Shown here: in pieces, positions 1 through 63,384 of the stretch
Layout of the letters: each line of letters opens with the position of its first letter
Numbering within the stretch: position 1 is the stretch's first letter
Source of the DNA: an uncultured Eubacteriales bacterium
GTDB taxonomy: Bacteria; Bacillota_I; Bacilli_A; Acholeplasmatales; Anaeroplasmataceae
Assembly: GCA_963628445.1 (NCBI GenBank)
Contig: CAVGEZ010000092.1
Coordinates: 10,634 to 74,633, forward strand
Length of the DNA stretch: 64,000 bases
Direction: 5' to 3'
Program-made: the position numbers and the translations under genes
Notes under the pieces: model-generated
Told to the model about the DNA's origin: nothing
What the model saw: only the letters and a program-made list of their open reading frames with translations
Databases searched by the model: none

Positions 1-3000
1 TGCGCTATCTGTCCAGAATATGACATAAATAGTCCATATTATAATACATTGTTCTGTGGCGATGAATATGTAGTAGAATAGACTTCAAAGGACACACCTC
101 TACATCAGGACTCTGGGGAAGCTAGACATTTCCATGCTGACGATATAAATTGTAAGAGTACTGGAATTTCTTATAGAACAAAGATAGTTGGAGTTGAAGA
201 TAATGTCAAATTAATAGAAGTTGGTGATAAAACTTTTTCAGCAAGAGCTGGAGAAGCCGAAGAGGCTTTTCGATATGAATACCTAAATTAGGAAATTAAA
301 TCCACTGACGCTACCAATCTTATAAGAGGTTCATTTGGTCCCTATTTAGCTCTTGACGGCTATGAGTATCCAGGAACATTAATCAATATATATATAAAGG
401 ATTATTAGACAATGAGTAAATAGGAGTTATTTAAACTTCGATATGTAGATAAATCTCCTTTTTATGCAATATCTTATAGATATGATATTTTGGATAATCC
501 GTCAGAATACCTATTATATAGAGGAGATACTTATATATGTACTTTTACTCATAGATTAAATAGAAATTTTCAAGACCCACAGGCACCTATTAATGATAAG
601 ATAGTAGATGAAAATTGCTGGAAAGATCATTATAAAGTAACTGATGGTGTTGTAAAAACAGAAAATTTTGAGAAAATAAACTTAGGAGATGTTAATGCTA
701 TAAAAATGGGATTATGGGTAACATTCCCATTAATATCTTCTAGTAACTTAAATATTAGAGCTTTAGATTCGTCTATTACTGATGAAGTTTCTTTAACAGG
801 GCATCCACGAACTTTTTATCCATATTCTGGAATGTCAGCTGATGGGTCATTTAAAGTACCTGAAGCTTTATGTTTTAATAAAGGATTTAATAAATCTTTA
901 TCGGAACGATATAATTTTGAAGTTCCCGATGTCCCTGCTATTAAAAATGATTTTACCAATAGAATTGCATATTCGGATATACATGTAAATGATGCTTTTA
1001 AAAATGGTTTTAGAACTTTTAAAGGAACACATTACCGAGATTATCCTAAAACTTATGGGTAGATAACTAAATTGGTAGAACTACGTGGTGGTTTACTTTG
1101 TGTATTTGAACATGGAATTGCCTATATTTCGGTAAATGAAAGAGCAGTTGCAGGAGAAGGTACTGGTGGAAATATCTATATTAACACCTCTAACGTGCTT
1201 CCAGAGAATCCAAAAATTATTTCTGATACATTTGGTAGTCAGTGGAAAGATTCTATTATAAAGACTCCTATGGCTGTCTATGGTGTAGATACTATAGGAA
1301 AGAAAATTTGGAAAACTAATGGAGAGGATTTTGAATGTATTTCAGATTTCCAAGTACAAGAATTTTTAAATAATAATATATCTTTATCAGAAAGAGAAAC
1401 TGAACCTGTTATAGGTATTAGAAATGTCAAGACCCATTATAATAGATTTAAATAGGATGTAATGTTTACTTTCTATGACAATTTATATGGGTTTGAAGAA
1501 AAAGTTTGGAACTTATGTTATAATGAGCTTATGCAAAAATGGATAACATTCTATAGCTGGGTTCCTAGTTATTCTGAAAATATATACAACCAATATTTTA
1601 GTTTTGATAGAAATACTTCTAAATACATTGCTAAATTAGGAGTTAGTAAAAAGAATAACGATTTTTCAGATGGAATAGTCCTAACTGCAAATACAATTCC
1701 AAATGACGCAAAAGTAGGTTATAAAATTGGTGAATTTGATTTAGTAAATAGAACTTTACCTTCAGGAAATAATATAGAATATAATTTAAGTTTTTCTTTA
1801 GAAAGAGATAATCTTAAAAATAATGAGTTATTTGGAATAGATTATGATAGTACTTCTAAAAAATGGTATCTATATTTAAAAACAGATGCTTGGAAATTAT
1901 GTTCTGAGTTGTATAAAAGAACTGTATCATTGGGGGATGAAACTAAGATAATAGATAATCCTAATAATCAATTAGAGTTTTGGAAAGATCAGTGTGTTTT
2001 AAACAATAACAGTAAAATTTATAAGGAAGAAGGTAAACGTGTATTCCTAGACAATGGAATAAATATTGATAAATTAGTTTATCTATTGAATGTAAAAGCT
2101 AATATTACTGTTACTTATAAAGGACAATCCTAGAGTGCTGTGGAAGCCTATTAGGATGGATATACCAATAATTTAAAAGTAAATGCTGGTTATTATCAAT
2201 CTGTTATTGCTGTAATTCCTCAATATAATATTCAATTCTTATCTACAGATTTCTGGAAACATGGTAGAGCAGGAATTATAGATATTGCTGATAAAATTTA
2301 TCCGTGCTATTGGTATGGTAAACAGCATCCTTTTGAGTTTGAATTTGTAGTTGCAGAAAATCCATCAATACATAAGATATTTGATAATTTAGAAATTATA
2401 AGTAACAGTGCAGAACCAGAATCCTTCCACTATGAAATAATCGGAGACAGCTATGATTTTGCCAAAGATAAAAAGAATATGTATATTCGACAGGAAGCTA
2501 CTAAAGAACTATATTAGTATAATGGTAGTGATATTACTTATGATAAAAATTATTCAGAATTATCTTCAGAGCACAGACATAATTACACTATAAAAGATGG
2601 TTAGAAAGTAGAACTTGATAGTTATGATAGGTCCACTTTGATGCCTTTATATTATAACAGAACTACTAGCATAAATAATATAGAGGACTATTACCATAGT
2701 AAGGACGGTAGTTCTGTTGGTAAAGATTTTTCTGCTTTATCAGGGGGTGAAATTACTCATTACGATGCCTTAAAAGAGTATCGTATTTGGAATCATGCTA
2801 AGGCAGTTGATATAACAGATCCAGAGAAAGGAAGAATTAGAGGAAACATGCATTACCAAGAAGATAAATGGAAAGTACAAATTAACCCAATAAATATAGT
2901 TCAATAGAACGAAAGTTAGTGGAAAGATTTAGACGGAAATAATACAGATAATATTCCTGTAGAATTAAATCAAAATCCCACTCCAGATGATGTGTTAAAT

Positions 3001-3183
3001 AAAACATCTTTAGAAGTTCCAGAAAACTTTAATAGGGGATATGTTACTTGGAAGTGGGAAGATACTTAGATGAGAGAAGTAAAACTTAAAGATAAATGGA
3101 TTAAAATAAGAGTTAGATATAAAGGAGATAAATTAGCCATTATATCTGCTATTATAACATTATATAGTATAAGTTATTCATAA
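1..3183 (+). CDS. virion (tail-associated) structural protein, N-terminus outside window; TAG read as sense
   Basis: Frame 1 is open from base 1 to TAA 3181-3183 once 13 in-frame TAGs are read through. Track ORFs 490-1062, 1072-1455, 1462-2133 and 2638-2907 are consecutive pieces of this one frame. I found no TAA/TGA in the gaps (checked codon by codon). Function is inferred only from its position at the head of the virion gene block. Confidence 0.7.
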
Positions 3184-5093
3184 TGGGAATAAGTTTTTCA
3201 AATTCTCCTTTATCTACTATATTTCCTGATACAACTAATAGTTTTGATAGGGAGATAATTCCTAAAAACAATGCATTAGGCTTTTAGTTAGGATTATAGT
3301 TATCACAGTCTACTAATCCAGCTTCTGCATAGTGGGGGCAACAAATGGTAGATAATTCAATAGTAGGAGCTAGTAATCCTTATCAACCTGTGATAACTCC
3401 TATTCCAGACCAAACTAATCCTATATCCAATTATTTAACTTAGGGATTTAATTCTCTAAGTTAGATTGGATCTTAGATTGGAGGAAAAATTGGAACAGCT
3501 TTTAATCAAGCTGGTAAAATAGGCTCAAATATTAAACTCATTAAAGAAGCTAATTAGGCTGTTAAGAATGGAGAAGCAGGTGCTAAAACATTAAGAGCAG
3601 GGGCATGGGGAGCAGCAATAGGTGCTGGTTCTGATTTAATTGGATCCTTTATGCCTTAGAAATCAGAGTATGATGGAGTACATGGAGATATAACGTAGAC
3701 TATGGATTCAGTTTATGATGGAATTTCAGATGCAGCTGCTGCTTTTGGGCCTGTTGGAATGCTTGTTTCAGGAATAATGAAAGGAGGTGCTATGTTAGGT
3801 AAAGGTGTAAATGCTTTAGGTGGGGGTACCGATGCAATGACAAGTACAGATGCAATCTTAGGGAGTTCTTTTCTTAATTTAACACCTCTTGGATTAGTAA
3901 ATGGTTTTGGAGGTAAGAAATCTAATTCTTTTACTAAAGATAATGAAGCGTTTGCGCAAATAGGTTCTTCTTATACAGGTAGTTATAGAGATGCTAATAA
4001 TGCTCTTGCAAAAGCTAATAAGAAATATGGCTTGTTTAGTAGTAGTGCTAGGAGAAAAGCTAATAAATAGATAGCAGAAGCTCTAAGACAACAAAATATT
4101 ATTTCTGATATTGCTGATAATACTCAAGACCGTATGAACATTAAAACTGCTATGTCAGCTATAAATGGAAATAGGTATGGCTGGAATATGTAGGGAGGTT
4201 ATGATTAGACTGCTGTAAGATATGGTAAGTTAGGTATGAAAGCTAAATAGATTATAAGAGAGCTTCAATTAAATCCTATAGTTTAGTATAAAAAATCTGC
4301 TCCCAAAGATTGGGAGGTTGTTCCTAAATCAGGGAAACCTACATATCAAGTATGGGTAAAGGATGTTAATCCTGATTATATATCAAAATCGTATGATTTA
4401 GAAACAGCTTACAATACTTTACCTTATGCTGCGATGCAAAGGTGGAAATTTGCTGTAAATAGTAAGACTCCTAAGTATTATCTAGATTATCATGATGGAG
4501 ATTACTATCCATTCCATACAGGTTCAGTAGCCCCATTAGGAGATGATTACATATTTTTAAAGAAAGGTACTTTAGAAACTAATCCCGAATTAAAAGGGGA
4601 ATTAGATTTCTATAATAATGATAAAAATTTTAAAAATAATTATGACCTTTCTTATGAAGGGGACAGATACTACTATAGACGAAAAAAGAAGCATAAACTA
4701 GGAGGATCTATTATAAAACTAAATAGAGAGACAGTTATATCATTAACCGACCCTAACAGTATCCCTGAATTTTAGAATGGTGGTTCTTTTAATGTTATTC
4801 CTGAAGGTGCTTTACATGCCAGAAAGCATAACATGGAAACCGAAGGAATTACCGAAAAAGGTATTCCAGTTGTTAGTGATAAACCCGATGGAAAAGTAGA
4901 GTAGTAGGCTGAAATAGAGCGGGAAGAGTTGATTTTTAGACTTTCTGTTACTTAGAAATTGGAAAAATTAGAAAAGAAATATTATAGTGAAGATTCTTCT
5001 TAGAAAGAAAAAGATGAATATGCCCTAGAAGCAGGAAAATTAATTACTGAAGAAATATTACATAATACACAAGACAATGCAGGATTATTATAA
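3183..5093 (+). CDS. virion protein, 636 aa (Gly/Ala-rich central segment; NVIPEGALHARKHN segment); TAG read as sense
   Basis: ATG 3183 overlaps the previous TAA (TAATG). Frame 3 is open to TAA 5091-5093 with 19 in-frame TAGs and no TAA/TGA. It joins track ORFs 3702-4070 and 4434-4775. Confidence 0.75.
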
Positions 5094-5925
5094 TATACCT
5101 AAGTTTGGATTTGGTGGACTATTTGCGAAAGAATTATAGAAACAACTCCCCCAATTAGCTGGAAAAAGTCAGAAAGAAGTTATAGAAGTTTTTGGAAAGA
5201 TTATGAAAAAATTTGGAAATTCCAATGTAGCCAAACTTTTTAATAATGAAAATCTTACCCAAAGAGAGGCACAAAGATTAGCCAAGTCTGTTAATATTAT
5301 GAATGAAATGGTTAAGGATCCTAAAAGTGTGGATAATCTCATTAAGAATTTAGAGAATAATCCTAAACGTATGGAAAACCTAATTAAGAATTTAGCCAAA
5401 GCTTCTGAGAAAGAAACAACTGCAAATAAAGCTAAAGCTGTTGCTAAAAAAGCCTCTGATAAAGCTAAAGAAGTAGCTTCTGAGACTAAAGAAAAAGTTA
5501 CTTCTAAAATAAAAGAGGTTGCCGAAAAGACTAAAGACACTTTAACAAACAATTTCTTTACAAGACACCCCTATCTATCAGGAGGAATTGCTTTAGGTCT
5601 TAGTAATGGAACAGTTAGAGAAGGATTGGGAAACGTTGTTAAATATTGGACTACTCCTGTTAATAAATGGGATCAATTAAGTAGTCCTACTAATACTTCA
5701 AATTAGGAATTTTTGTTTATGAATGGTACTAAAATCCCTCTTAAAAGAAATGCAGATGGTTTCTTTGTGCCTATTACAGATGAGGACAAAACCTCTACTA
5801 ATAGTGGTGATGCAGCTATTGATGCAGCAGTAAATGCAGTTAACAATAGTCCAGCCTCCGATAATTCTTATATTCCTAATAGTGGCTTTAATGACTTATT
5901 TGAAGGAGATCAATGGTTACAATAA
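5077..5925 (+). CDS. virion protein, 282 aa, Lys/Glu-rich; N-terminal PKFGFGG motif
   Basis: ATG 5077 in frame 1 lies 42 codons upstream of the track start (5203). That upstream stretch is coding-like and has one in-frame TAG (5137). A second TAG at 5704 joins ORFs 5203-5706 and 5713-5925. The gene ends at TAA 5923-5925. Confidence 0.65.
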
Positions 5926-6491
5926 CAATTGGTAATAAAACTTACAAAGTAAAAGAAGCTAAAACTGACGAGGAAAAAACAAAAGGACTACAAGGTATTG
6001 ATCATTTACCCAAAGATGAAGGAATGTTATTTTACTTTGACCCAGATGAAAAAAATTCAATTTGGATGAAAGATACAAAAATTCCTTTAGATATAATCTT
6101 TATTAATGATGATCAAGAAGTTACCAAAGTTCACAGAGGTGAACCAAACGATGAATCTTTAATAACATCTCCAGAGACGGCTTATGTTCTAGAAGTCAAT
6201 GTTGATTCTGGAATAAAAAAGGGAGACGAATTAGAAATAGATGACGGTAAAGAACCTGTTATGAAAGTTTTAGCTTAGGATGGTAGTACTTAGATGTAGT
6301 TATGGGGAGGGGAAAGAATTGTTAGTAGAAGAGAAACTAAAATACTAATCAAGAAAGCTAAAGCAGCAGAAGCTGCAAAGGATACTCCTCAATTTGAAAA
6401 TAAATGTAGATCTCTTGGTAAATATATGTTTAAGGTTATTAAAGGTTAGGATACAAGACCTAATGAGTATGTAGAAAACAAAAATGCATAA
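5913..6491 (+). CDS. DUF192-like protein, 192 aa
   Basis: Track ORF 5913-6278 continues through 4 TAGs to TAA 6489-6491. The pattern GLQG...GMLFYF...IWMKDTKIPLDIIFI...YVLEV matches what I remember of DUF192/COG1430. Confidence 0.6.
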
Positions 6492-6570
6492 ATATCTTAA
6501 ATAATTTTCTTTTTTAGAAAATAAAGTTTATATTTACTTCAAACCGTGTTATTTTTAATTATATATAATT

Positions 6571-6891
6571 ATGAAAATTACTTACAAAAACGCAGCAAAA
6601 TTAACTAAGAAATTTTAGGCAGGAGGTCCTGTTGAACCAGCAGACCAACCTGTAGTAGAGCAGGCTCCTGAAGAAATGGAAGGTGCTCCTGAAGAACAAG
6701 CTCCTCAAGACCCTATGATGCAATTGGTGGAGATTTTTAGTCAAGGTTTGCAAAATCAAGACTGTCAAGCTCTTGCACAAGGTGCTCAGATGTTTTTACA
6801 ACTTGTTCAACAAGCACAGGAAGGTGCAGAACCACAAGGAGAACCCGTTTATCGAAAAGGTGGTAAGCTTGCTTATAAGATTAAGAAATAA
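6571..6891 (+). CDS. small Gln/Glu/Pro-rich virion-module protein, 106 aa
   Basis: ATG 6571 follows an 80-nt AT-rich spacer. There is one in-frame TAG (6616, inside KF-Q-AGG). The gene ends in a double TAA at 6889-6894 and is followed by a strong hairpin terminator. Confidence 0.7.
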
Positions 6892-6906
6892 TAAAACTCA
6901 TTTTAT

Positions 6907-6946
6907 GGAGGAAGTGGAGATAATCAACTCCTCTTCCTCTTTTTTG
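6907..6946 (+). terminator. rho-independent terminator
   Basis: Stem GAGGAAGTGGAG (6908-6919) pairs with CTCCTCTTCCTC (6928-6939) with one mismatch. The loop is 8 nt and is followed by TTTTTT (6940-6945). Confidence 0.75.
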
Positions 6947-6951
6947 TTTAT

Positions 6952-9852
6952 ATGGCAGAAGAAATACAACAATAGGTAGCAACACCTATACTATATAGCT
7001 TTTATGGAAAGCAATACGATTATAATGATCTAGCCAAAGCTGCAGATCAAGGACTATCAGATTATTTAAATACTTTAAAAAGAGGTTCTAAAGATTCCGA
7101 GGAATTTAGAACAGCTTATAATGATATTATGAGTGGTATTAAGGATGGAACTATTACTTTTGCTGATGGTTCATTCCATGATTCCCAAGGAAGATATACA
7201 AACTCAGATGAAAAATATAGAGATTATTATGGCTTGATAGCCAATTATATTTACAATTAGATGGGGAAGTCTAATGAGTATAAAGCCCCTGAGGATTCTA
7301 CAAAAATTAAATGGAGCAATAATAGTGTAAGAACAGCACTAATGAGACAACTATTTAATAGTGATACTGCTAGAGTACAAGATTTTCTTGATTTAGATGA
7401 AGAAAAAGATGGTGTTCGCGGTATTACTAATAGGGCTTCTTACTTATCTAATGCATTACAACGTGTTGCTGATAACTGGGATTCTACTTTCCAAGGCTAT
7501 CAAGATTCTGATAAAACTAGATACGTAGAATTACTTACTAAAGCTGCTCAAGCTTTACACGATGGTACTATTGATCCCGGAGATTATCTTGCATTAGGTA
7601 ATGCTATAGGAGGGGTTGATTTCCGTGAATTAATGGCTACAGGAACACCTAAACAGTAGATAGTAGAACAATAGCCTACTACTAAAACTACTGAACAAGT
7701 AGTAGAATAGCCTAAGTTAAAACACACTGTATTAACAGTTAAAAATCCAGTAGCAGCTTAGAAAGCAGCAGCACTTATGCAAAGAATACCTACACAAGGT
7801 TTGATTAATATTCTTAAAAATAGTTTTTACAATTAGAAATATACTTTTGGAAATGACTCAAGAATATATTCTATTTTTAAAACCAATAAGATTACAAATA
7901 GATTTGGAGTTACCGCTACTTTGAATGCTTTATATGCACAAGGAAAGCTTTAGCTCGCAGACCCCTCTAATCCTAATCTTTACTATATTCCAGGATTACG
8001 TACTAAACGAGGAACGGGTTGGGTTTGGGATAAAGCCAACAACACTGTTACAGAAATGATGTTGTAGAATATTCCGTATGCTGCACAACGTTTACAATAG
8101 GTAGCAGTAAATAAACGAGGAGGAATTTTGAAGGCTTCCTCTGGTGCTCAATTACCTTGGTATAGTGGTATAACTGATTATAATCCTACTGGATATAAAA
8201 CAGCCTACGGTTCTACTTTATATGGAATAAACAACAACGGTGTTTATGAAAGAGCTTACGATAATAGTGGTGCTGGTTCTATCGACTCTCGATATAAAAC
8301 TGATTCAGATTACAGCGATTACGGAGAAAAAGGAAAATGGTATGCTACAGAGGTAGAAAAATAGAATTATTTTAAAAATTTTACCAAAGCTCTCCAAGAT
8401 GCCGCTGATATATATCAAAACGCTTAGGATAAATCTACATTAAATGATAGTAACAACCTATTTTTAAGATGGGCACATGCTGTAGATAAAAGTTTGCCAT
8501 CTGGTTCTACTGCTACTTTCTTTGATAATAATGGTGCTTTAAGAACTTCTTGGGGAGCAACTAATAATGATTCTTATGGCAGAGCAGCTGGCCCAGCAAC
8601 TTCTAAATTATCTGATTACATTTATAAAGTAAGAAATGATTAGTTGCTGTCTAATAGACATAATGATCTACTCTTAGAAGGAAGTCGTTATTTCTATACC
8701 GATTCTTAGGGGAATAAACACTGGGTAGATCCAGAAGTTGCTAAGAAATACAGAATAGGTAACGGAGTAGAACGTATTGAAGGTAATACTCGGTGGACTG
8801 ACTTTGAAATTTTTGGAAACCAAACTCCACAAGGAGCTAGTACAAATTCTCCGCAAGGTGGTAATACAAGCTCTCTACAAGGTACTAATATAAACCCTAA
8901 AAAAGAAATTAATAAATAGAGTTGGATAGAAAAAAATGGAGAACGATTATTAGAAAAAGCAGCCCCTTTAGCATTAAGTACTACTAGGTTATTTGATTCT
9001 TTACACACTAATAATAAAGTAGCTGACATAATGAAAAAAGCTACTACTCCTGTTCTGAAAAATACTTATGAGTTATACTCTCCTGTTACTGGTGCGTTTA
9101 GTGAAATGCAGCTTAGGGAAAATCAAGCCGCTGATGTAAGAAGGTTTGGTAATCAACCTTATACTTCAGATGCTTCTTTAAATGCTGCAAGATCTCTTGA
9201 TGCAAATAGACAAGCAACAGACCTAGAACGCCAAGGCTTTATTGCAGATGATAATGAGATTAAGAGAACAAAAGCAGAAGCACTTGCTAGACAAGAAAAC
9301 AATATTGCTAGACGTACGGAAGTAGCTAATGTTAATAGAGCTGCAATTAATGCTTCTGACAAGGAAAAAGCTTATATAGAGGCAGAGAGACTTAATAAAA
9401 ACTGGCAATCTAGAGATAATTATCTAGGAGGAATTGAATCAGATATTAAACAAAGAATTGCTCAAAAAGAAGCAAATAGAGAGTATAATAGGAAACGTAA
9501 GCTTAGTATTGAAGAGTCTGGGTTTAGTGCTGATTTAGACTATGAAAAATAGGTATTATAGAATAAGTTCTTGGATTTGGAGAATGAGATTAAACTCGAT
9601 CTTTAGAACAAGATTCAAGAGTTTACTAAAGGTGAAGATAAGTATTATTATGACCAACCTTTCTATAAGGAAGCTATGGAAAAACTTAGATAGTTAAGAG
9701 ACCAAAAATTAAAGGAAGAACATGAGCTTACAAAAAGACATAGTATATTAACTTCTGATTATATAAAAGGTTTATATGATAAAATGGATAGTAGTTCTTT
9801 ATTTAGAAAAGGTGGTAGCCTTAAAATGATTAATAAAATATTAAATAAATGA
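6952..9852 (+). CDS. large virion/cargo protein, 966 aa; TAG read as sense
   Basis: ATG 6952. Frame 1 is open to TGA 9850-9852 with 19 in-frame TAGs. All gaps between track ORFs 7261-7659, 8128-8364 and 9031-9552 were checked and contain only TAG. Confidence 0.8.
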
Positions 9853-11744: not shown

Positions 11745-11747
11745 TAA

Positions 11748-20576: not shown

Positions 20577-20577
20577 T

Positions 20578-26500: not shown

Positions 26501-29500
26501 ATAATTGTAGTACCTTTTATCAAAGTTGGGAGAATATAAACAAAGTTTCATATGAAGCTCATGAGAATGTTTAGCCGGATTCTCCACAAGTTATTAATAA
26601 AATATATGCAGTAACTTCTGACAATGTCAGATTATTTGAAATAGGTAGAGAAATAGTAAATGATGATGTAGTTTGGGATAGTGCTAAGAAAGCTTTTATA
26701 TAGGATGGTAAAAAAGTAAGCAATCAAAGAAACTTCAGACGTGATGGAGATAGAGTTTTAGAATATATTGAATTTGTTTCAAAACACCAAGTATCTGAAA
26801 CAAGAGGGAATGGTTCAGTTATATCTTATAATTTATATAATATAAATAAGAATAATTTAAGAAGATGCTTTGAAAAAGAAATCTATCCCGAAAAACAACT
26901 TCATTATAAAAACTCAAAAGGAATAGATATTACATTAACACAAGATCAAAAATATGATCAATCTATAAATTATTATATAAGTAATTTACTTGCAAATATA
27001 TATAAAGCGCGGAACTATAGTGGTATTCAGTTTAATAAATCTATGAGTGATACTTCTGGTAGAATAGTAAAGCGTGTTCTATATAATTTTGCAGAGAATC
27101 TTAAATATAATAAACCTTTATATGATTATCTTAATAATGTACGAAAAATTATAGATAATATAGAGGGTGAGTTTAAAATACCTACAAGAGCGTTAAAGAA
27201 AGCAGAAAGAACTTATAGTACAACAATTTCTCATAAACAGTATGTTTCTTTCTAGAAATCTCTTTATTTTACTGCAGCTCGTATTCCAGCCCAAACGCTA
27301 CAATCTTTTATGAAATAGAAGTGTGTAGGTTTTACTGGAACAGATACTGGACAATGTTTTGTATCAGCATGGTAGACATTCTTGTAGGGAAGTGACTATA
27401 AACAGAATTGTAGTCTTTAAATCTCGTGAACTGCGGGGAACTTCTTAGAGCCTATATGTACTAATTTAGAGTAGAAATATCTCTAAAGGCAGTAACTAAC
27501 TATTGCTGACATAGTAAAAAGCATGTAGGATTGGACAATCCACGGCCAAGCATTCTAGATAAATATTTACAGGAAGGACTTGTTAATTGACAAAATTTCT
27601 TGTATATTTACAAGAATGAGGGTTCACAGACTATCCCGAGAGGGAGTAGGAACTTTCGTTTAAATAAACGAAGTATGACAAAAAGAAAATTTATTCGACT
27701 TAGTAAAGAACAGAAGAGTTTATTAATAGCTCTCTTAATAGGAGGTGGAACTATATCTAGTAATTACGTGTTTAAACTATCCCACTCTGCTCTACAAAGA
27801 GAGTACTTAGAGTGGAAAGTGAAATTATTAAACACCTATGGAATTAAAAATAATGGAGTAAGGGAATACATATCCAAATGCGGATATAATACTGGAAGAG
27901 AGGTGTTGTACTCACAAATGTCTCTTATTCCAACTATAAAAGCACTGCGTAGGTCTGTTTACGTTCCAAAGAAAACTATTACTAGAAAACTACTAGAATG
28001 GTTAAATCCTCTAGGTTTAGCCCTCTGGTATATGGATGACAGGTGTATTAATGTTAATACATCGAAGCAAAGAAGCTCTATTCAACATACTATTAAGATA
28101 GCTACATGTGTTGATGAAGCTACTATTAAAACAATAATAAGTTACTTTGATGAAGTATGGGATATACACTTCAGACCTTTTAAAGAAGGAAAAGGTACTT
28201 ATTCTATAGCGTCTAGTTCAGAGCTAGATTGCGAAAAGTTTATTAAAATAGTAAAGCCATATATAGAGCAAGTTCCCTCTTTTCTATATAAAATAAGAAG
28301 AGATTTAACTAAGGAGGAATTTATAAAATTACAGGAGTCAGGTTCCGAAGTGCGAGACATTGTATTTTAATATAATGATGATATAGTCGGACTTATACTG
28401 AAAAGTATAAGATAAATCGGATATAGATAAAGCATATATAATGGGTTTATGCTTTGATGAGAACGGATTATATGAAGGATGGAGTAATCTATTCAATTAT
28501 GATTCTATAGAAAATCTTAATGCGTCAGAATATTTACCAATGCCTCAGAAAATAAGGCATATAGTAATAAATGATGTTAATTCTAGAAGATAGTCCTTTG
28601 TTCAACAATTAGTAAATACTACTGATGAACAAGAGTAGGCAGAGATCTAGAATAAATTAAGATAGTTAGATAATATTGTAGACATAGATCCTTGGATTAA
28701 TAGAATCTATTCAGAAGAAAATACAGCTAAAAGAATACAACTAATGGCTGACTTTATTAATGAGATAAACAAGCATGCTTATGAAACTAATGAAGGTAAA
28801 TCAGTTAATTTAACTTATACAGATTCTCGTGGAAAACAATTAATTAATGATTTAAATACCCATGAATTTACTGAAATACCAACTAGTTTATCTTAGGATA
28901 TTAGTAAGAATTTTATTTCTAGTCATATTCAAAACACTGTTCAAGATTTAATTAATATGACTAGAGCATATTCACCTATTGAAATATCTGATTTTGGTGA
29001 TGCAGCTAGCTTAAGTGATAAGAGTACTGCAGAGCAAGAATTGACTCTTTTAAACCCAGCTACAAAATATATTATGTAGTATATTAATATGGTTGGTAAG
29101 AATGTAATTGGTATTGCTGCAAATGGTGAAAAAGCTTCTTTTATGTGGCATTTCTATCTTAATGATTTAGTAAGATATGGTGATGCAGAAAAACGTAAAT
29201 ATGGACATTTTAAATTCTTAACTAAAAGAATTATAGGCAGAGCTAATAATGCAATAGAAGAAAAAACAATAACTGGATTACCTGACATTAATTTTGAAAA
29301 TATAGATCCTCGTATTCTAGGAGAGTTTGGGTCTAGATTAACAGGTAATTTATATGTAGACTTGATGATAAGTTAGGTCTTGTCTGCGGCTACTGATAAT
29401 GCAAAAGAACTTATACTTGGAAAAGTAAATGCAGGTAATAAATTAGCAAAAATGTATTTATTTATGATTACTCTTGGTATGAACATAAATGACATTGTTA

Positions 29501-31230
29501 AATTTATGACATCACCAGTAGCATCATTTATAAATGATATAACAGAAGATGATATTTTCAATGATTACAATTTACCTATAAGTATTGCAATTGATTTTGC
29601 AAGAGGAAAGTTTCTTAATCAAAAGGGAGAAATTCTAGAAAATTATAAATCTAGGTATGGTACTCTAACTATGATACAAATTAAAGATCTTTATGAACTT
29701 TATAAGTTAAATGATAAAGAAAATCAACAAAATATCTTAGAAGATTGTAATGAATTTGAGAATGTGTTAGAAGGAGCTGATGAATTTAGTAACTTTGGTA
29801 GATTACTTGGATTAAATCAAGGCATAGGTACTTCTAAAATAGATTTACAGAAATAGATAAATAATATAAAACAATTCTATTCAAAAAGGATTGAAAAAGC
29901 TTTAAAAGACCCAAATATAGATTCGTCAATTAAAGAAAATCTTAAAGATTTTGGTTCTATAGATGTTAAACGATGGTTGAATGACAAAGAATATTAGAAA
30001 ATAATTACAGATAATTATAATGTTGCTAAAAAGTGTATTAACATTTTTGATGCTTTTCAACATATTCCTCAATTTAATTCTATTGGTAAATTAATGTCTG
30101 CTGTAATAGAAGTAGATGATAATATTTCTATTAAATCAAAAGCTTTTAATAGTGTATTAGAAAGAGCTAAATAGAATTTTAATTTCATATCAGAGGATTA
30201 TGAAAAGAGAATGCTTAAAGCTGTAGATACTGCTATTATTAGTAAATTTATAATAGATTAGAATATTTTTATTCCTGTATTAAAAGATACTTCTTATCTA
30301 CAATCAGATAGATCTTCTAAAACTTTTAGTGAGAATGCTTCTTTCTATTTAGATAGTCAATCAGCTATAGCGTCTTTTAAAGAAATATTTGAAAATAAAG
30401 TAATTCCTCGTTTAAAGCAAGGTTTTATTGCAGAAGTTGATGAGGACGGTAATGTTACTGAACAAGAATATGTAGATTTAAAATCAAATCCATTTATATA
30501 TGCTTTAATTAGAAGTAGAGAAAGAGATGTACCTATTTACAAAGCTAATATAAATATGAATTTAATTAATAGTAGTTTAAATGCTCAAAAATAGTACTAG
30601 GTATATTCTAGAGGCTTATCAGCTTTATCTAAATATAAATTTGGTAATATAACTTTATCTGATGCATTTATGTTATATAATTTAATTATAAATAGAAATC
30701 AATATGGAGAAAACCGTTTGACAGGTTTGTTTGATTCTTTTGTAACTAAAAATAAAACATTACATTTGCTTTATAAGTATTTAAAATATTTGGGAGATTT
30801 AGATTACAATGGAGTAGTTCACTTGGATATAGATACGGAATTTAAAGAACCTTCAAACAATATTCCTGTGTTGGATATTTCTTATAAAGATATATTGATT
30901 TCCGCAGCAGCTATGGTAAAATCCGATAAAGGACAATCAGATCCTTATATTATATTGTTAGGGGACATTCCTACTATAAAAGAAAAACATGGTTTTAATT
31001 ATAGTACTTTACAAGAACTTTTACCTAAGTCTTCTAAAGAAACTACAGAGGAATATATAGATAGATTAAATAATGAAAATAGATATTTTGTTTTAGGAGG
31101 ACAATTTTCAGATATACTATAGAATAAATTACAAACTATACAAGATATGAATGATATAGATAAAATAATATCATATCTTAATAATTTTGTAGCAGATGGA
31201 TTATTAACCATAAATAAAGTATGTGAATGA
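20578..31230 (+). CDS. virion-packaged two-barrel RNA polymerase (crAss gp66-like), 3210 aa; exons 20578-27399 and 28420-31230
   Basis: Frame 1 is open with 43 in-frame TAGs from ATG 20578 to TGA 31228-31230, apart from the intron interval. RIPAQTLQSFM (27280-27312) resembles the RxPxLHxxSxM segment of beta-prime/Rpb1. About 28 residues later comes GSDY|DIDKAY, which is the DxDxD metal triad once the exons are joined. Confidence 0.8.
27400..28419 (+). mobile_element. group I intron carrying a LAGLIDADG homing-endonuclease ORF
   Basis: - P1: exon GACTAT (27394-27399) pairs with GTAGTC (27410-27415), with a terminal U-G wobble at the splice site.
- The intron's last base is G (28419).
- P7-like: GACTAT (27629-27634) pairs with ATAGTC (28383-28388).
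- P9-like: 8-bp hairpin with a GAAA tetraloop (28392-28411).
- GNRA hairpin TCCC-GAGA-GGGA (27634-27645).
- Splicing restores the frame and the DYDID motif. Confidence 0.8.
27675..28370 (+). CDS. intron-encoded double-motif LAGLIDADG endonuclease/maturase, 231 aa
   Basis: Motif 1 is LLIALLIGGGTISS and motif 2 is LGLALWYMDDRCINV. The ORF has no TAG and ends in TAA, so it is translatable in either code. I prefer ATG 27675 to the track's TTG 27600, because that upstream stretch forms intron helices. Confidence 0.75.
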   Translation: MTKRKFIRLSKEQKSLLIALLIGGGTISSNYVFKLSHSALQREYLEWKVKLLNTYGIKNNGVREYISKCGYNTGREVLYSQMSLIPTIKALRRSVYVPKKTITRKLLEWLNPLGLALWYMDDRCINVNTSKQRSSIQHTIKIATCVDEATIKTIISYFDEVWDIHFRPFKEGKGTYSIASSSELDCEKFIKIVKPYIEQVPSFLYKIRRDLTKEEFIKLQESGSEVRDIVF

Positions 31231-33656
31231 GTAATTGTATTGTTACTATTAACATTAATAATAAAGAATTGAAGGTGAACTTGAAAGATAGTTCACCTTC
31301 AGTTTTAATTGATCAAGATTTTATAGAAGCTCTAAGAGAACAACCAGAGTTAGTAAGCACTCTTGTAGATAATCTACGAGAGATGTCTTTGAATACTGGT
31401 TTAAAATCAATAACTTTAAAAGATTTACAATCTGATGGTATACAGGCCAACTGTACTTTACAGTATTTAAGAGAGAACCCTAAATACAGTGAAATAACCT
31501 TTCCTGACGGTAATGCTAATATATTATTAGTTAAAAAATTAGTGTTGGGTGGTACTAGTATATCTGGAAGAATAATAAATTCTAACGGAGAAGAAATCTT
31601 TGTTACAAATGGCTCTGAATCTGATTTAAAAAAGTTAGCTTCTTTCTTAAAAGTAAGAAATAAAATAAGAGATTAGGGGATGAATTTATCTGAAGATTCC
31701 CCACATTATCCAGAATTGAAAGAGATTTTAGAATTAAAAAATGCTAAATTAAAAAAGAAATTAGATTCTATAGAAGATCTTATCCTAGATTATATTTATA
31801 ATAAGAAAAGCTATGCAGGTTTGTCATTAAAAAACGGCAAAAGTATCATATCTGTTTTAGAACCTTTTATTAGAAATATCCAAAAGTGGGAAACCCCTAG
31901 TATATTTGATGATCCTTTTATTACAGATATAAATTTACAAAAAGCTAATTTTGGGTATTCAACAAAAGAAAAAATTAATACTTCTTTTATTCATTATGAT
32001 GTTTTATTCAAGTTATTAAAGAAATATTATCAACCCTTATTAGATGCTTTTAATATAAATTCAAAGAATTTTAAAGAAACTGAAAAGAATAAAGACTTCT
32101 TAGAAATTTTTACTAAATATGATAATAATTCTGTTGATATAGTTAAAGATTCTAACAATCTTCTAGAAGCTATTATAAAATATACTTTCTCTACAGAACC
32201 TGAATTTGATTTTAGTTTTTATAAAACTTCTAAAAAAGGAATATTTTTAAAATAGGGATATACCCCAATCTCTGAGAAATATGGAATAGCTTATGATACA
32301 ATTCAAGAAATGAAAAGAACCTCCTATAAGGGATATTTTATTTATGAATAGACTTTAACTAACAACCATAAGAGAGTATTTGCTAGTAGAGGGACACTAA
32401 CTGAAGAAAATAAAAGTAAACCTTATAAATCGGTCGAAGAAGCATAGCAAGAGATAGATAAAATATTAGCTAAGCAATTTCTAAGAAAAAACTCTTTGAT
32501 AGAGTTTAAATATAGAGATAGTGCTATTGATGAAAATGGAAAAACTATTTGGGATAATAGCTTACCAAAAGAAACAATAGAAAGTACTGTTTATTTTCCT
32601 GTAGGAACTATTGTGGAATCTATTAATATTCCAATTAATAAAAAAACTAATATAAGAGGAGATGAACAAGCTTTGCTTAATAAAGCTAATATTAAATCCT
32701 TTCAAGAATTAATAAATTCTTGGACTATTAATAACAAACATAAAGAATATATATTACAAAATTTAGATACCCCAGAAAAGATAATAACATTTATATATAA
32801 AATAAATGAAATTTTGGGAGTAGAGGATAGATCTAAATCTAAGTAGATGGCAGATATTGCGAAATCTATAGTTACTGCTAACAAAAATTACTATTATATA
32901 GAAAAAAGATATTCAACAGGAAGTACTTATACTTATAAAGTAATACCAACTGAATTAGATAGTATGAGTAAACCTGACACACCTAAAAATTTACCAGTAA
33001 TTACTTGGATGGGTGCTATTTCTCAAGCTCTTAATAATTAGTTTGGTATATAGGTGAATCTACTTACTTCGGAAGAAGTGTCCTCACAAATGAAAAATGT
33101 TGCAGATCCTAATCTAGATAAAGCTTTTATTTATAATGGATAGGTATATATAAACACTACTATAGCTTCTACTGAAGATTTGTTACACGAGCATGTTCAT
33201 TTAATATTAGGTATATTAAAGAGTAATCCAAACTTAAGAGCTAATTATGAACGTCTATTAAACCAAGTAATAAGTACAAAGTAGGGAAATACTATGCTTG
33301 CTAAATTATCCGAAAATTATTCTGGTTTATCATAGATGGACTTAAGAGAAGAAGTTTTTGCTAAATTGTTTAGTAATTATTTAAGACAAGATATTACTAT
33401 TCAAACTAAGCAAGTATTTGAAGCTGCAGAGGAAGATATTAAAGAGGTAACAAAAACTATTTTTAATACTAACATTTCAAGTATAGCAGATTTTTATGGT
33501 AAAACTACTTTAAGTATATTTAAGAAGTTTAATTCTGATGTTGCTAAAATGTTAAGTTCTAATAATATAGATTTTAATTCTACTGTAGAATCCCGACAAA
33601 TTTCTAATTGGGTTTCTAAATAGATTAATGATGGAAATATAAAAGAAGAGTGCTAA
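31227..33656 (+). CDS. virion/cargo protein, 809 aa, with HExxH motif
   Basis: ATG 31227 overlaps TGA 31228-31230 (ATGA). Frame 3 is open to TAA 33654-33656 with 11 TAGs. It joins track ORFs 31227-31676, 31680-32255, 32496-32846, 32847-33041 and 33336-33623. HEHVH lies at 33186-33200. Confidence 0.75.
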
Positions 33657-33657
33657 T

Positions 33658-36600
33658 ATGGAATATTGTCATTATAGTTTTAATGGGAAAGATTTTACTT
33701 CCTATCATGAGCTTTTAAATTATTTAGATGAATACTTTAAGACGAATGTAGATGAGTTACAATCAGTAACTGATATTGTATATAGTAAAGCTAATTTTTA
33801 GAACTAGCAAAAAGAAAGAATAGAGAAGGTTAAACTAAACAATATAAAATTTGCATAGGCTTCTTTAATTAATGGTGAACCTAGTTTTGAAGGAAATAAA
33901 CTAAGTATATTAGATTTCTTGGATTCTCCAGAATGTAATATTGAAGGTAGACAATTAGTAACACCTCTTAATATTGATCAATATATTGAAGAGAGTGTCA
34001 AACACCTTATAGATTAGGGAGAAGAAGAAGCTGTTGCTAGACAAAAAACAAATCTTGAAGTTTAGCAATGGGAACACATTAAAGAAGATGCTAAATATGT
34101 CCATGTTTTAGGTAGTAGCTCATTAATATTTGAAGAAGATGATGCAGTTTTCTCAGAAAAGATTAAGGATAAAATTCCCCAGCATCTTTAGAAAGCAGCA
34201 ATAAGATTAAAAGATGGTTTTAGGCAAGTATATATAGAATAGAAAGGTAATTACACTGATAGTGTTGCTATAAAGAATCTTAATCTTAAAGCCAAATTAA
34301 AAGAAATAGATAAAGAAATTTTTGGTCATATAGACTGGCTTTTTATTGGTAAAGACGGTGTACTACATGCTTATGTAATAAAGACTACTTCTCAGAATCC
34401 GAAAGACTGGACTCGTGTAAAACTGGATAAATATAAATATGAGTTAGCTTTTCTTCAATAGATGTTGGCTTATAATGGAATAAATGTTAAGAATATAGAT
34501 TTAAATATTATTCCTGTCTAGTTACAATATAAAGGAAATGAAGTTGCTGCTAAAGTTCATAAAGTATAGACTGTTAGTTCTAGATTGTCAGGTAATGGTT
34601 ATGCTATGGATAAATTTGATAAAGCAGTAGCTCATTTCATAAGTTCTAACAATATGCCTCAACGAATTAGTTCTGAGCCTATTCAAAGAGCTAACGAAGT
34701 AAATAGGGCTATATTCCCTACCATTAATTTACGTGAAGATGGCATTGGCAAATCTGCAGAAGAATGGATTAAATACGCTCCTTCAATAGATCCAGAAGGT
34801 ACGGAACCTCTAGTAATCACACAAGTAAACGAAATAGACCACGCTTATGATGTTAAAATCAATGGAACTGTACATAAAATAAAATCTAATAAGACACGGA
34901 AGCATAATAAAGAAATTTTAGAATTAGTGTAGAAATATATCTATTCTTTAGATGATAAAAAAGGTTACACTACACAACGTTTAAAAGATGCTATTATAAA
35001 TAGTTATAATAAAGGTTTTATGACTTTTTCAGAAATTCCCGGACTAAAAAGTATTTCAATTTAGTTAGAAGCCGTTTTAGGAAAGTATTTTGCTGATTAT
35101 GAAGTAGATGAAAATACTAAAAAGAAAACTTTTACATGGGAGTTACTATCTGATATAACTGATGCTAATGTACTACTTTTTAGAAATAAGAATACTAATG
35201 TAATAGATTTTATTTGTCTATCCGCTTTTGATATAAGAGCAAAAGCAAACATTAAAAGTGGTCAAAAAAATATATTAGCTGCATATCGTTATGATAGTGA
35301 ATATGTTGATTTGGAAGGTGATTATGGAAATGTAGAAGCAGTTAGGACTATGGAGCTGCTTAATGAAATTTTACCAAGTTTAGGTAATGCTAAATTAGGT
35401 ACATTAGGTGTTCTAAGCACTATTAACGGAGCACCTTATAGATCTTATAATATAGGAGAATTTAATAAAAAATACTTCCAAAATATAGTAGCTATTGTTA
35501 ATTCTGAAAATAAAGGTTTGAATATTATTAATAATTTTTCATAGGCTTATTTTACAAATCCTGTAGAAGAAATTATTAATGAATATATAAGAGTTACGGA
35601 TGGTAAATCAGAAAATTATAAGAAGACTTACGAAGAGCTTGGATTAGATGAACTTTCTGCAGAGGATAACACGTTAGTCCAACAGAAAGCTTTAGAAAAT
35701 ATATTATTTAATATGACTAAATAGTATTCTTTCTTATCTAATCCTGAAAAGGTAGAAAAAGCTATAGAGTAGTCAACTAATTCTTTATTACATAATGTCG
35801 CAACTCTATATGAATTAGTTGCTAGAGCTTATATTACTCTTAGAGGGGAAACTCCTGTAAATAAGAATAATTTAAATAAATTAAATACTATATTCTTTAC
35901 TGCACCTACTGTAAATGACGAGAATATAAGAATTGTTGTAGATAATCTATAGATAACTCATGATACTATTGCTGAGGAGTTCTTAAAAGAATACGATAAT
36001 GGTATCAGAAAGCTATTTGATACCTTTTATGATAAGTGTGGATATAGTAGGGCTTAGAATTTTATGATAGGTAATCAAACTTCTCAATTTTCTAATTTAA
36101 TAGATCCTGATGCTGATTTAATGTCTTTTAAAAATCCTTATGATATGTCTAATGATTTAAAAGACTATGAGAGAGATTTATTAAAAGAAGTTCTATACAG
36201 GATTGACAAAATTAATAGAAATGGGAATAGTAAGTTTAATTCTGCTAATGATTCTAAGATTGAAACTTACATAGAAAACCACCCAGAGTATTTATGGGTT
36301 CCTTTAAAGAGAGCTTCAGGTGCTTCTGTAGCTTAGAGTAAAGAAAGTGTTATGGCAGGTATGAAAAATTTCTTTAGAAAAATACAAAACGCCTCAGAAG
36401 CTTTTGATGAGTTTGTAGAAGGGTTGACTTCTGAAGAAAGAGAATTACTAGGAAATGATAATGATGAATTTTATTCAATGCATCTTAAAAACCCATTTAG
36501 TATAAGTATGCCTACTTCTGCTAGTAATATTAACTCTACTATTAAAAATAGAAAAAATCTTTTGGATAAATATGGTAAAGGTTTTTTTGAAACAAATGTA

Positions 36601-38193
36601 GAAAGTCTTTTAGTTGATTTTCTAGCAGCATAGATTTCTACTACTTAGTATAATAAATTACTTGTAGCTTCAAAAGCTTTAATGCTTGAATTACACTTAA
36701 CAGGTAATTTTAATGGTAACAAAGAAATTGTTGATAAAGAAATTAAATACATTCAAGATTATTTAAAAATAAATGTATTTAAGACATCTATTATGAGTAA
36801 ACCTGAAAAAGCTATAGTAGGTGTTATTAGCCCAGTCAAGAGAGTAGTTTCCCACATGTTGCTAGGTGGTAATTTAGTCGGTGCTTTACGTGATGCTCTT
36901 GAAGGAGTGGAGTAGAATTTTATTCGTTCAGTTATTAAACTGAATACTGATTTAGATCCAAAAGATGTTGCAAAAGCTTACAACTATGTATGGAGACATA
37001 GTAAAGCTAATGCAATGTCTATGAATCTTCTTAGTAAATTATGTCTCCGTTATAGAATCTCTAATACTGATGTAGGTAGAATTGCGGAACGGGCTAAGAC
37101 TGGGCGTAATGGTATTTACAATTTTAGCAATATGATGTATAGTACATTAAGATGTCCTGATTTCTTAAATAGAATGACATTATTTGTGGCTAAATGCATG
37201 CATGATGGAGTTTGGGATGCTATGAGTCTAGATTCTGAAGGTAATCTAAAATATGACTGGACTAAAGATGCTAGATTTAAAGCTTTTAAATATGGTGTTG
37301 TAGGATCCCCTGAATATAAAAAAGCTAAAGCAGCATATTTCTCTAGAATTAGAGAATATAATTAGGAACATCCAGACCAACCCTTAGAGATGACTGATAA
37401 TCTTCCAGAACCTTATTCTAAACGTTCTATTAATGCTATCCGAAGTCTTGGGGATAATATTTATGGTTCTTACGATAAAGGAAAGAAAGCAATGCATGAG
37501 TTTGCAAGTTATGGTTTTCTTTTTGGTAGTTTTACTACTTGGATGAATGGTATTGTAAATAACTACTTTATGAGTACCCAAAAGAATGGTGTTTCTATGA
37601 TGAAAGAAGAACAAGAGCTTGATGAGTAGGGTAATAAGTTATTTTTTGATGAATATGGTAATATAACTAATGAAGACACAGGTATGCCTGTAACTAAAAA
37701 TGTACCTATAATTGTTTAGGGTATTTTACCTACTCTTACTACAATGGTTAGTATAGCTAAAGATAACGGTTTATCTGAGGTAGTAAAATATGTGAAAGGT
37801 AATAAAATGGTAAAAGCTAATGTATTCAAAGCCACTTCAGATGCTTTAATGTATGCGCTACTCTATTCTTTATTTTCACTATTATTTACCCCTGCTTATA
37901 AAGGATTTAAAAAGACTATGGTAGATAATCCTGCTATAGTTAATCTATTTACAGAGATTCTTTATAAAGGTTCGTCTAGAGCTTATGACCAATTTAAAGG
38001 GCCTTTAAATATAATATAGTTCTTTGGTGAAAATATGAACCCTCCATTTTATTCTACACCTGTTCAAGTATTAAAAGATGCTGGCAAAACTATATTTGGA
38101 GACAAATCTTGGAAATATCTATTATTTAATAATACTGGTTTCACAAGATCCTTTAAAGATACTGGATTTGCATACCTTAAATCATTAGAATGA
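33658..38193 (+). CDS. large virion/cargo protein, 1511 aa
   Basis: ATG 33658 follows TAA directly. Frame 1 is open to TGA 38191-38193 with 25 TAGs, and every gap was checked. The N-terminal part has a RecB/Cas4-like fold signature (GHIDWLFIGKDGVLHAYVIKTT ... ELAFLQQMLAY). Confidence 0.8.
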
Positions 38194-38366
38194 TAAGAGA
38201 TAATTTACAAGGTAAATTCCCTAGATGTCATTATAACAAAGCAGGTAAAGCTAAACAAGTTTTTGAGACTGAACAGGAAGCTTTAGATTATATAAAAAAG
38301 ATGAATCTTACTGGATATATTATATATCAATGCAGATATTGTAATAAATTCCACATAGCTAGTTAA
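38190..38366 (+). CDS. small Cys-rich (zinc-ribbon-like) protein, 58 aa
   Basis: ATG 38190 overlaps TGA 38191-38193 (ATGA). Sequence is MIRDNLQGKFPRCHYNK...YQCRYCNKFHIAS. It ends at TAA 38364-38366 and has no TAG. It is below the track's size cutoff. Confidence 0.5.
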   Translation: MIRDNLQGKFPRCHYNKAGKAKQVFETEQEALDYIKKMNLTGYIIYQCRYCNKFHIAS

Positions 38367-38372
38367 AAAAAA

Positions 38373-38416
38373 AATAAGCCCGGTATCTTAATTGATACTG
38401 GGCTTATTTGTTTATT
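38373..38416 (+). terminator. strong rho-independent terminator ending the + strand module
   Basis: A 15-bp stem: AATAAGCCCGGTATC (38373-38387) pairs with GATACTGGGCTTATT (38394-38408), including one G-U pair. The loop is TTAATT. It is flanked by an A10 run upstream and TTGTTTATT downstream, so it could work in both directions. Confidence 0.8.
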
Positions 38417-38756: not shown

Positions 38757-38798
38757 ATAAAAAAAATAAACCCCTTAACAAGAAATTCTGTTAAGAGG
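38757..38798 (-). terminator. rho-independent terminator ending the - strand module
   Basis: On the - strand, CCTCTTAACA pairs with TGTTAAGGGG (10 bp including one G-U). The loop is 8 nt and is followed by TTTATTTTTT. It lies immediately after the 38808 stop. Confidence 0.75.
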
Positions 38799-38807
38799 TT
38801 GATTTGG

Positions 38808-41682: not shown

Positions 41683-41889
41683 TCAATGTTTGTCATAAAT
41701 ACATTTATATATTAAATTAATAGTTTCTTTATCTAATTCTATAACATCTTTAAAAACTCTATTAGAGAACTTTCTTAAAGCTATCCCAAAAAAGCTGTTA
41801 TCATCTTTTGGAAATTCTTTTTTAAAAGAATTAATCATAGCTTGCTTTTCTTCTACTGTATAAAAACTATTCATAATTCCAACGTCCAT
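41683..41889 (-). CDS. hypothetical protein
   Basis: Packed standard-code ORF. Confidence 0.45.
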   Translation of the reverse strand: MDVGIMNSFYTVEEKQAMINSFKKEFPKDDNSFFGIALRKFSNRVFKDVIELDKETINLIYKCIYDKH

Positions 41890-42169
41890 CTTGATAGTAA
41901 TGGAAAGCAGAGTAAAGACAACCCCATTCTACCGATAAACAGGTCATATTAATATTCTCTTTATCTGGTAAATTTTTAACCATTTCTATCATCTTAGTTT
42001 CAGGAAAATCCCATTTAGATTCAAATGTAATAGTAATATTTTCTTCATCAACCTCATCCAAATCAAAATAATGCCAATTTTCACTAAAGAAATTCATTAT
42101 ATATTCTAAATTCTTAGGATTTTCAGAATAAACTCTTAATTCATTATTACATATATTTGCCATAGTCAA
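41867..42169 (-). CDS. hypothetical protein (terminates in TAG)
   Basis: Ends ...GRWNYE-TAG (41867-41869). The next in-frame stop is TAA at 41831-41833. Confidence 0.55.
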   Translation of the reverse strand: MTMANICNNELRVYSENPKNLEYIMNFFSENWHYFDLDEVDEENITITFESKWDFPETKMIEMVKNLPDKENINMTCLSVEWGCLYSAFHYYQDGRWNYE

Positions 42170-42518: not shown

Positions 42519-42717
42519 ATATTTCTTCAGTAGCCTGCCCTCCGTTTTCCGAGGGTAACATTCCTTCTTCTGTGTCTACTAAAAGTTCTGAATCTACTGG
42601 ATACGCATCTAAGTTTAATATTTGATTGATAGCTTCTTCTATAGAATCTGCCTCTATTTTAAAATAATCTCTTCTCCAAATTGTGTTTTTAGAATCTTTA
42701 TATAAACTAAATTTCAT
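42472..42717 (-). CDS. hypothetical protein
   Basis: Packed standard-code ORF. Confidence 0.45.
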   Translation of the reverse strand: MKFSLYKDSKNTIWRRDYFKIEADSIEEAINQILNLDAYPVDSELLVDTEEGMLPSENGGQATEEIFDTHTNETLYGNKQD

Positions 42718-61768: not shown

Positions 61769-61770
61769 AA

Positions 61771-63306: not shown

Positions 63307-63330
63307 TTTTATATTAAGCTATTATGCTAT

Positions 63331-63368: not shown

Positions 63369-63384
63369 AATATAGGATATAGAA

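Follow-up and report, generated by a model that had tools for sequence, protein, structure and literature searches.

Gene organization of the locus

The stretch of DNA analysed here, 64,000 nucleotides of contig CAVGEZ010000092.1 (hereafter the window), carries part of a phage genome, assigned below to the crAss-like gut phages, in which one strand is crowded with in-frame TAG codons. The window is AT-rich (about 30% G+C) and contains a plus-strand arm, at 1-38366, and a minus-strand arm whose open reading frames (ORFs) lie within 38808-63936. The GC skew changes sign near 38.4 kb, in agreement with two convergent gene arms.

When TAG is read as a sense codon, the plus-strand arm, which we analysed as recoded over 1-38366, becomes a chain of 12 large abutting genes plus one homing endonuclease gene borne on an intron. 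The first gene, g1 (1-3183; 13 TAGs), is truncated at its 5' end by the window edge and encodes a large virion structural protein; it matches PHROG 28748, 'virion structural protein' (E 4.5e-14), and its homologue in a related locus (L111) is 74% identical. It is followed by g2 (3183-5093; 636 aa), whose 19 TAGs are the densest of the arm at 3.0% and which has a homologue in L111/L112, and by g3 (5077-5925; 2 TAGs), g4 (5913-6491; 4 TAGs) and g5 (6571-6891; 1 TAG). Next come g6 (6952-9852; 19 TAGs), which overlaps g7 (9849-11744; 12 TAGs) by ATGA, and g8 (11748-20576; 51 TAGs), which encodes a protein of 2,942 aa. A giant gene follows in two exons, g9 (20578-27399; 29 TAGs) and g11 (28420-31230; 14 TAGs), and the arm is completed by g12 (31227-33656; 11 TAGs), g13 (33658-38193; 25 TAGs) and the final gene g14 (38190-38366; 58 aa, no TAG). 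With g9 and g11 taken as one gene, the terminator is TGA in three cases (g6, g11 and g13) and TAA in the other nine, and both ATGA and TAATG junctions are found between genes. A first-pass annotation, made from the letters alone, had counted the TAGs of the 12 genes by hand (13, 19, 2, 4, 1, 19, 12, 51, 43, 11, 25, 0); these counts, which sum to 200, are correct, as are its tally of stops and its description of the junctions.

TAG is a sense codon in the plus-strand arm

The genes of the plus-strand arm contain exactly 200 in-frame TAGs in 12,345 codons (1.62%), and not one internal TAA or TGA in the same 12,345 codons; off-frame, the trinucleotides TAA, TAG and TGA are all plentiful in the arm. 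The effect of the code on the open frames is large: plus-strand ORFs of at least 100 aa sum to 21.5 kb in the standard code and to 42.5 kb when TAG is sense, and reading TGA as sense instead gives almost no gain in ORF length. Under code 11, plus-strand ORFs of at least 60 aa cover 52% of 1-38366; under code 15 they cover 98.6% of it. The longest TAG-containing frames, with 11-51 TAGs each, stay open for up to 2,942 codons (8.8 kb) without any TAA or TGA. In nine of the 11 complete recoded genes the first TAG lies no more than 70 codons from the start, and thus read-through is required almost from the beginning of each gene.

In the plus-strand arm TAG is therefore a sense codon and only TAA and TGA terminate (genetic code 15), because 200 TAGs stand against no internal TAA or TGA, because ORF coverage rises to near completeness, and because g13 has 65 full-length homologues. 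Standard gene callers would badly misannotate the left 38 kb, as had been predicted; callers using code 11 would split it into more than 100 fragments, and the region should be annotated with code 15 or with a dual-code caller. The earlier statement that every interruption of the long frames is a TAG holds throughout the arm except at 27400-28419, where an insertion with in-frame TAA stops carries a separate ORF.

A probable intron in the giant gene

The homologue of g9 plus g11 is a single continuous ORF of at least 2,517 aa in three relatives (L005, L006 and L008), none of which has the 1,020-nt insertion found in the window at 27400-28419 on the plus strand. Mapped against L006, the break falls exactly between ...TFLQGSDY, the end of exon 1, and DIDKAYIMGLCF..., exon 2 beginning with DIDKAY. 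The insertion is preceded by an exon-final T, its last base is G, and it divides a D-Y-D-I-D motif as D-Y|D-I-D. Its 3' part, at 28272-28410, matches the Rfam family Intron_gpI at 31.5 bits, short of the gathering score of 50 (E 6.5e-6 when 1.2 kb was searched). From these sequence features the insertion is probably a group I intron inside a giant late gene, and comparison with the relatives identifies g9 and g11 as one real gene with 43 TAGs, whose predicted spliced product has about 3,210 aa and reads ...GSDYDIDKAY... at the intron site.

The intron contains a LAGLIDADG homing endonuclease ORF (27675-28370, plus strand; PHROG 11023, E 5.7e-15) that has no TAG in 231 codons, when 3.7 would be expected at the rate of the arm (P = 0.023) and when its host gene has 43. 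The spliced giant protein gave no match in a sequence search of PDB, and hence none to a solved crAss-like phage RNA polymerase (RNAP), and exon 2 has no PHROG match.

The amino acid encoded by TAG

The 65 homologues of g13 were found in a search in which TAG was masked as X. Opposite the 25 masked sites Q is the commonest residue (333 of 825 cells, with a background of 4.4%), and a database protein that is 98% identical to g13, the difference being the 25 masked TAGs, has Q at all 25 of them. This tally is not independent, since the related loci are recoded too (67 of 67 IMG/VR loci carry 11-51 in-frame TAGs in the g13 homologue) and a Q in the database may itself be a TAG; codons were counted instead. 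Aligning 27 divergent g13 homologues with fast MAFFT gave too much noise; an L-INS-i alignment of seven closer sequences, g13 and six relatives at 50-68% identity, took its place, and all ordered pairs were counted in it.

In the L-INS-i alignment the codons opposite TAG are TAG (24%), CAA (17%), AAA (8%), GAA (7%) and CAG (4.5%), and CAA codons of the window stand opposite TAG more often (27%) than opposite Gln codons (19%). The control codons TAT, TGG, TTA, GAA and AAA pair with codons of their own amino acid and not with TAG. The same picture is obtained when 11 genes are compared with five close relatives: opposite the TAGs of the window (n=342) there are 87 TAG, 49 CAA, 45 CAG and 20 GAA codons, followed by AAG, AAA and GAG with 14 each, and in the reverse direction the window has 119 CAA, 87 TAG and 45 AAA codons opposite the TAGs of the relatives. 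CAA is two substitutions away from TAG, so the exchange between them reflects a shared meaning and not mutational closeness. The residues that homologues place opposite TAG had been proposed as a check of the first-pass annotation, and in this tally the Gln codons CAA and CAG are the main non-TAG partners. Frequent exchange between TAG and CAA, with a tail of Glu, Lys, Arg and His, marks a codon for Gln, and TAG in the plus-strand arm most likely encodes Gln.

At variable sites TAG is next most often paired with Glu and Lys codons, which might be taken to suggest that TAG stands for another amino acid (Tyr, Lys, Glu, Leu, Ser, Trp or pyrrolysine). We regard this as most improbable: in the comparison with five close relatives, 255 codons other than TAG stand opposite TAG and 94 of them (37%) are Gln codons, against a Gln background of 2.3% (measured in the alignment of 27 g13 sequences), the Glu, Lys, Arg and His partners fit the usual substitution spectrum of Gln, the single-step neighbours of TAG (TAT, TTG, TCG, TGG) are rare opposite it, and no pyl genes were found among the 54 ORFs of the minus-strand arm.

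The same comparisons leave only a vanishingly small probability that the TAGs are sequencing or assembly errors, or marks of decaying pseudogenes, a reading that has nothing in its favour beyond the fragmented look of the arm under code 11. Just one of the three stop codons is affected, frames remain open over as much as 8.8 kb, TAG positions frequently coincide with those of independently assembled relatives (the 87 TAG-TAG matches), and relatives from many samples show the same pattern; the open frames, the shared positions and the recoded relatives refute it.

The minus-strand arm avoids TAG

On the minus strand, 54 ORFs in the standard code tile 98.6% of 38808-63936, and their 8,374 codons include no internal TAG, when about 136 would be expected at the rate of the plus-strand arm (P ~1e-59). 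The arm therefore has the same reading in the standard code that its host uses, and its description as fully open in that code is borne out. Pfam families among the 54 ORFs comprise NrdD, a family A DNA polymerase (PolA), ThyX, dUTPase, an ATP-dependent ligase, thioredoxin, two metallophosphatases and a complete sigma-70-like factor; by these domain matches the arm is a replication and nucleotide-metabolism module, here called early. One early protein of 183 aa recurs in identical form on contigs in 105 blocks of the contig collection.

The early ORFs end in TAA (25), TGA (25) or TAG (4). The absence of TAG as a terminator, asserted in the first-pass annotation for the virion arm, thus does not extend to the minus-strand arm, and its statement that the code differs by strand, correct as to the asymmetry, is better worded as a difference by expression module. 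The four ORFs ending in TAG lie at 41867-42169, 42707-42937, 55004-55696 and 59481-59687, all on the minus strand. Three of them have a TAA 3, 6 or 11 codons downstream (6 codons for 55004-55696), and beyond 59481-59687 an in-frame TAA or TGA comes 21 codons later, at 59418; with the next stops so close behind, read-through would add short tails only. The last of these ORFs has a GTG start and 68 aa and is doubtful as a real gene.

Phage identity and conservation of the asymmetry

The best matches of the PolA protein are IAS virus, cr108_1, cr111_1, crAss001 and DAC15, with 35-39% identity across 96-100% of the query, and on this similarity the element is a crAss-like gut phage. In g13 the closest deposited phage genomes reach only 25-30% identity, which places the window phage in a poorly represented lineage and not in one of the well-studied families. 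Megablast of window positions 1-20000 against GenBank phages returned no match, and an exact 40-mer was not matched in IMG/VR. The genes for crAss-type TerL, portal and major capsid protein fall outside the window, and the ORFs upstream of the g1 homologue in L111 have no PHROG matches.

The difference between the two arms is conserved. In 60 related loci TAG accounts for 7,367 of the 284,427 codons in the late-side ORFs (2.59%) and for 48 of the 78,406 in the opposite-strand ORFs just downstream (0.06%). The nearest deposited genome, MT835492.1 (30% identity in g13), is a linear, unannotated record of 121.6 kb marked 'UNVERIFIED', and its layout is like that of the window: the recoded arm has twelve ORFs, 475-3,401 aa long and each containing 4-128 TAGs, and the other arm is TAG-free save for one in-frame codon, which lies in one of its seven ORFs of at least 400 aa. 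As first proposed, recoding is restricted to the virion or late arm, both in the window, where the early codons include no internal TAG, and in these relatives.

A proposed change of code during infection

We consider it highly probable that the locus represents late-gene TAG-to-Gln recoding in a crAss-like gut phage with two convergent arms, whose early genes are readable in the standard code and in which UAG is decoded later. The early genes would be translated once the DNA enters a standard-code host of Bacteroidales type, and UAG would later become readable as Gln. Most likely the agent would be a Gln-charged amber-suppressor tRNA(CUA) encoded outside the window; a non-canonical or host-supplied suppressor may serve as well. 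Until UAG is decoded, the 200 TAGs would hold back premature synthesis of virion proteins, and module-specific amber recoding is thought to delay the synthesis of virion and lysis proteins. The layout and published work suggest that the code switch is temporal.

The early ORFs translate almost identically in codes 11 and 15, and hence the phage as a whole, or its host, might always use code 15, the early arm lacking TAG by chance and no switch taking place. This is very unlikely. The early arm has none of the roughly 136 TAGs expected, and the depletion is also found in 60 diverged relatives, which indicates selection against TAG in early genes, something that constant suppression would not produce; moreover, four early ORFs end in TAG, and the predicted hosts of recoded crAss-like phages use the standard code. 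A contig 97% identical to the window is binned with a metagenome-assembled genome (MAG) of Alistipes finegoldii, and Alistipes is a standard-code lineage. This contig (L122, CAVFGN010000059.1; 6.7 kb), the only match of an exact 42-mer in GTDB genomes, corresponds to window positions 61184-64000, and its binning is a weak hint of host or of co-occurrence.

Several observations weigh against late decoding of UAG as Gln. The designation of the plus-strand arm as virion arm is based on one PHROG match and on layout, and most proteins of the arm have no family match; the PHROG scan covered g1-g7, the endonuclease, g11, g12 and g13, and among these only g1 and the endonuclease received an informative label. 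The timing of expression is deduced from gene content. The Gln content is uninformative, being 2.85% in the plus-strand arm without TAG, 4.47% with it and 2.66% in the minus-strand arm. Above all, no decoding agent was found: the 64-kb window has no tRNA (ARAGORN, and Rfam at gathering thresholds and at E up to 5), and its 54 early ORFs include no Pfam domain of a release factor, GlnRS or amidotransferase, which agrees with the first-pass annotation. The 48 tRNAs of 130 related loci (2.64 Mb) include none with a CUA, UUA or UCA anticodon; L131-L133 have no CUA tRNA; and the whole 121.6-kb record of MT835492.1 has six tRNAs (Asn, Asp, Thr (UGU), Met, Tyr, Ala), none of them CUA; in all, about 2.8 Mb of related sequence gave no CUA-anticodon tRNA. 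The window holds 64 kb of its own genome, of which at least 29 kb lie outside, and the relatives are covered in part, apart from MT835492.1; with such partial coverage the missing CUA tRNA does not show absence.

Decoding of UAG

The related loci were walked to the right through L001-L004, the DnaB and helicase homologues, L113-L115, L119-L121 and L123-L133, and to the left through L111 and L112. The relatives carry blocks of tRNA genes in the early arm, with Leu, Arg, Glu, Gly, Gln(UUG), Ser and Thr among the tRNAs, and tRNA-Gln(UUG) is found in the early arm of several of them; a T-arm pattern derived from this tRNA and used to find such blocks gave only 3 matches.

It is quite unlikely, in our judgement, that UAG is read as Gln with no dedicated CUA tRNA, either by a near-cognate tRNA-Gln of host or phage, pairing with U at the first codon position, or by a non-canonical suppressor RNA missed by tRNA finders; the near-cognate route might be aided if a phage factor blocked or depleted RF1. 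Neither the window nor the 2.64 Mb of relatives nor MT835492.1 yielded a CUA tRNA, which speaks for such a route, as do the tRNA-Gln(UUG) genes in the early arms, the published complete amber-reassigned Crassvirales genomes that also have no CUA tRNA, and the fact that a suppressor is detectable in just 40% of TAG-recoded genomes. On the other side, no genome of the lineage was covered in full (at least 29 kb of the phage's own genome lie beyond the window), 200 read-throughs, 51 of them in one gene, demand efficient decoding, and a UUG anticodon would endanger TAA, the main terminator of the plus-strand arm. Near-cognate reading is not known to give efficient decoding of so many TAGs.

A broader claim, that the whole lineage (the window phage, at least 60 IMG/VR relatives and MT835492.1) sustains heavy TAG-to-Gln recoding with no canonical CUA suppressor tRNA in its genomes, is in our view unlikely. 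TAG makes up 1.6% of late-arm codons in the window and on average 2.6% in the relatives. If the claim were true, UAG would have a decoder not yet recognised (for example a non-canonical suppressor RNA, a tRNA-Gln with a modification or a phage factor that acts on RF1), and this lineage would be a good place to find it.

Three features of the relatives lie in or near tRNA genes. In a relative that is 85% identical (L119), ARAGORN reports at 1210-1283 a tRNA-Tyr with an AUA anticodon, with U at position 37 and an over-long anticodon stem; this tRNA-like gene is atypical and, as read, is not an amber suppressor. In MT835492.1 (L134) a match to an HDV-like ribozyme, at 12473-12540, stands directly after tRNA-Met in a tRNA cluster (28.9 bits, gathering score 44); HDV-like 'theta' ribozymes beside tRNAs have been reported in recoded gut phages. 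In the early arm of L131, at 7136-9896, genes for a glutamine amidotransferase, a COOH-NH2 ligase and a peptidase C26 are clustered beside tRNA genes, and no counterpart of this cluster was seen in the window.

Comparison with recoded crAss-like phages

Late-gene TAG-to-Gln recoding in crAss-like phages has already been published, and the window adds one more example. Reassignment was found mostly in late genes by Yutin et al. 2021 (PMC7886860), who did not always detect a matching suppressor tRNA, especially in the Zeta group; according to the preprint of Borges et al. (10.1101/2021.08.26.457843), crAss-like phages employ the alternative code in their late genes for structure and lysis, only 40% of the genomes in which TAG is recoded have a detected TAG suppressor, and the predicted hosts of the recoded phages are standard-code; and Peters et al. 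2022 (PMC9523058) supported TAG-to-Gln recoding by metaproteomics in two crAss-like phages, with peptides that have Gln across TAG sites. The prior knowledge on which the first-pass annotation drew is accurate according to all three sources.

The window resembles these phages in having TAGs confined to one contiguous late module, TAA and TGA as sole terminators there and TAG aligned with Gln, as well as a replication module compatible with the standard code, an AT-rich genome and resemblance to gut phages; in both, introns with homing endonucleases interrupt conserved genes. Unlike the recoded crAss-like phages described, it shows no suppressor tRNA, either in the window or in the examined parts of its relatives, and most proteins of its plus-strand arm have no PHROG match.

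Zeta crAss-like phages (proposed Echekviridae) have genomes of 145-192 kb that are densely set with introns and inteins and in which TAG or TGA recoding varies (PMC12386605; PMC7886860), and insertions inside the DxDxD motif of the RNAP gene have been described for this group (PMC7886860). The insertion in the window lies exactly in a DxDxD-like motif of the giant protein, many g13 relatives are on contigs of 150-190 kb, relatives have tRNA blocks in the early arm, and the early arm of the window has a weak intein-like match. In contrast to the Zeta phages, the contig of the window is reported at 93 kb, and the giant protein has no sequence-level match to a solved crAss-like phage RNAP. By analogy, a Zeta-like placement of the window phage is plausible.

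A further parallel is an amber-reassigned Crassvirales genome from Egypt, a circle of 101,034 bp with Segatella copri as predicted host, in which code 15 lifts the coding density from about 59% to about 91% (bioRxiv 10.64898/2026.08.21.746148). By its description it is like the window in having two domains, one TAG-rich and one TAG-avoiding, and no detected CUA tRNA.

Other features of the early arm and the arm junction

Between an A-run and a T-run at the convergence of the arms there is a 16-bp G+C-rich hairpin (38372-38409), likely a bidirectional terminator, at which weak Thr_leader matches occur on both strands. A second terminator-like hairpin lies on the minus strand at 38769-38800, just past the last early ORF, and the roughly 360 nt between the two have no assigned gene.

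The ORF at 56068-56895 (minus strand), adjoining the NrdD region, has a weak match to Intein_splicing (E 3.1e-6, below the Pfam cut-off), and an HNH endonuclease ORF interrupts the NrdD gene of two relatives (L001 and L004). The sigma-70-like factor, at 49315-50172 on the minus strand, has regions 1.2, 2, 3 and 4 and lies directly upstream of PolA. No named crAss-like phage is among its best GenBank phage matches listed. The factor could direct the host RNA polymerase to later phage genes, and its synteny with PolA is also found in MT835492.1 (52320-53111, then 53154-55043).

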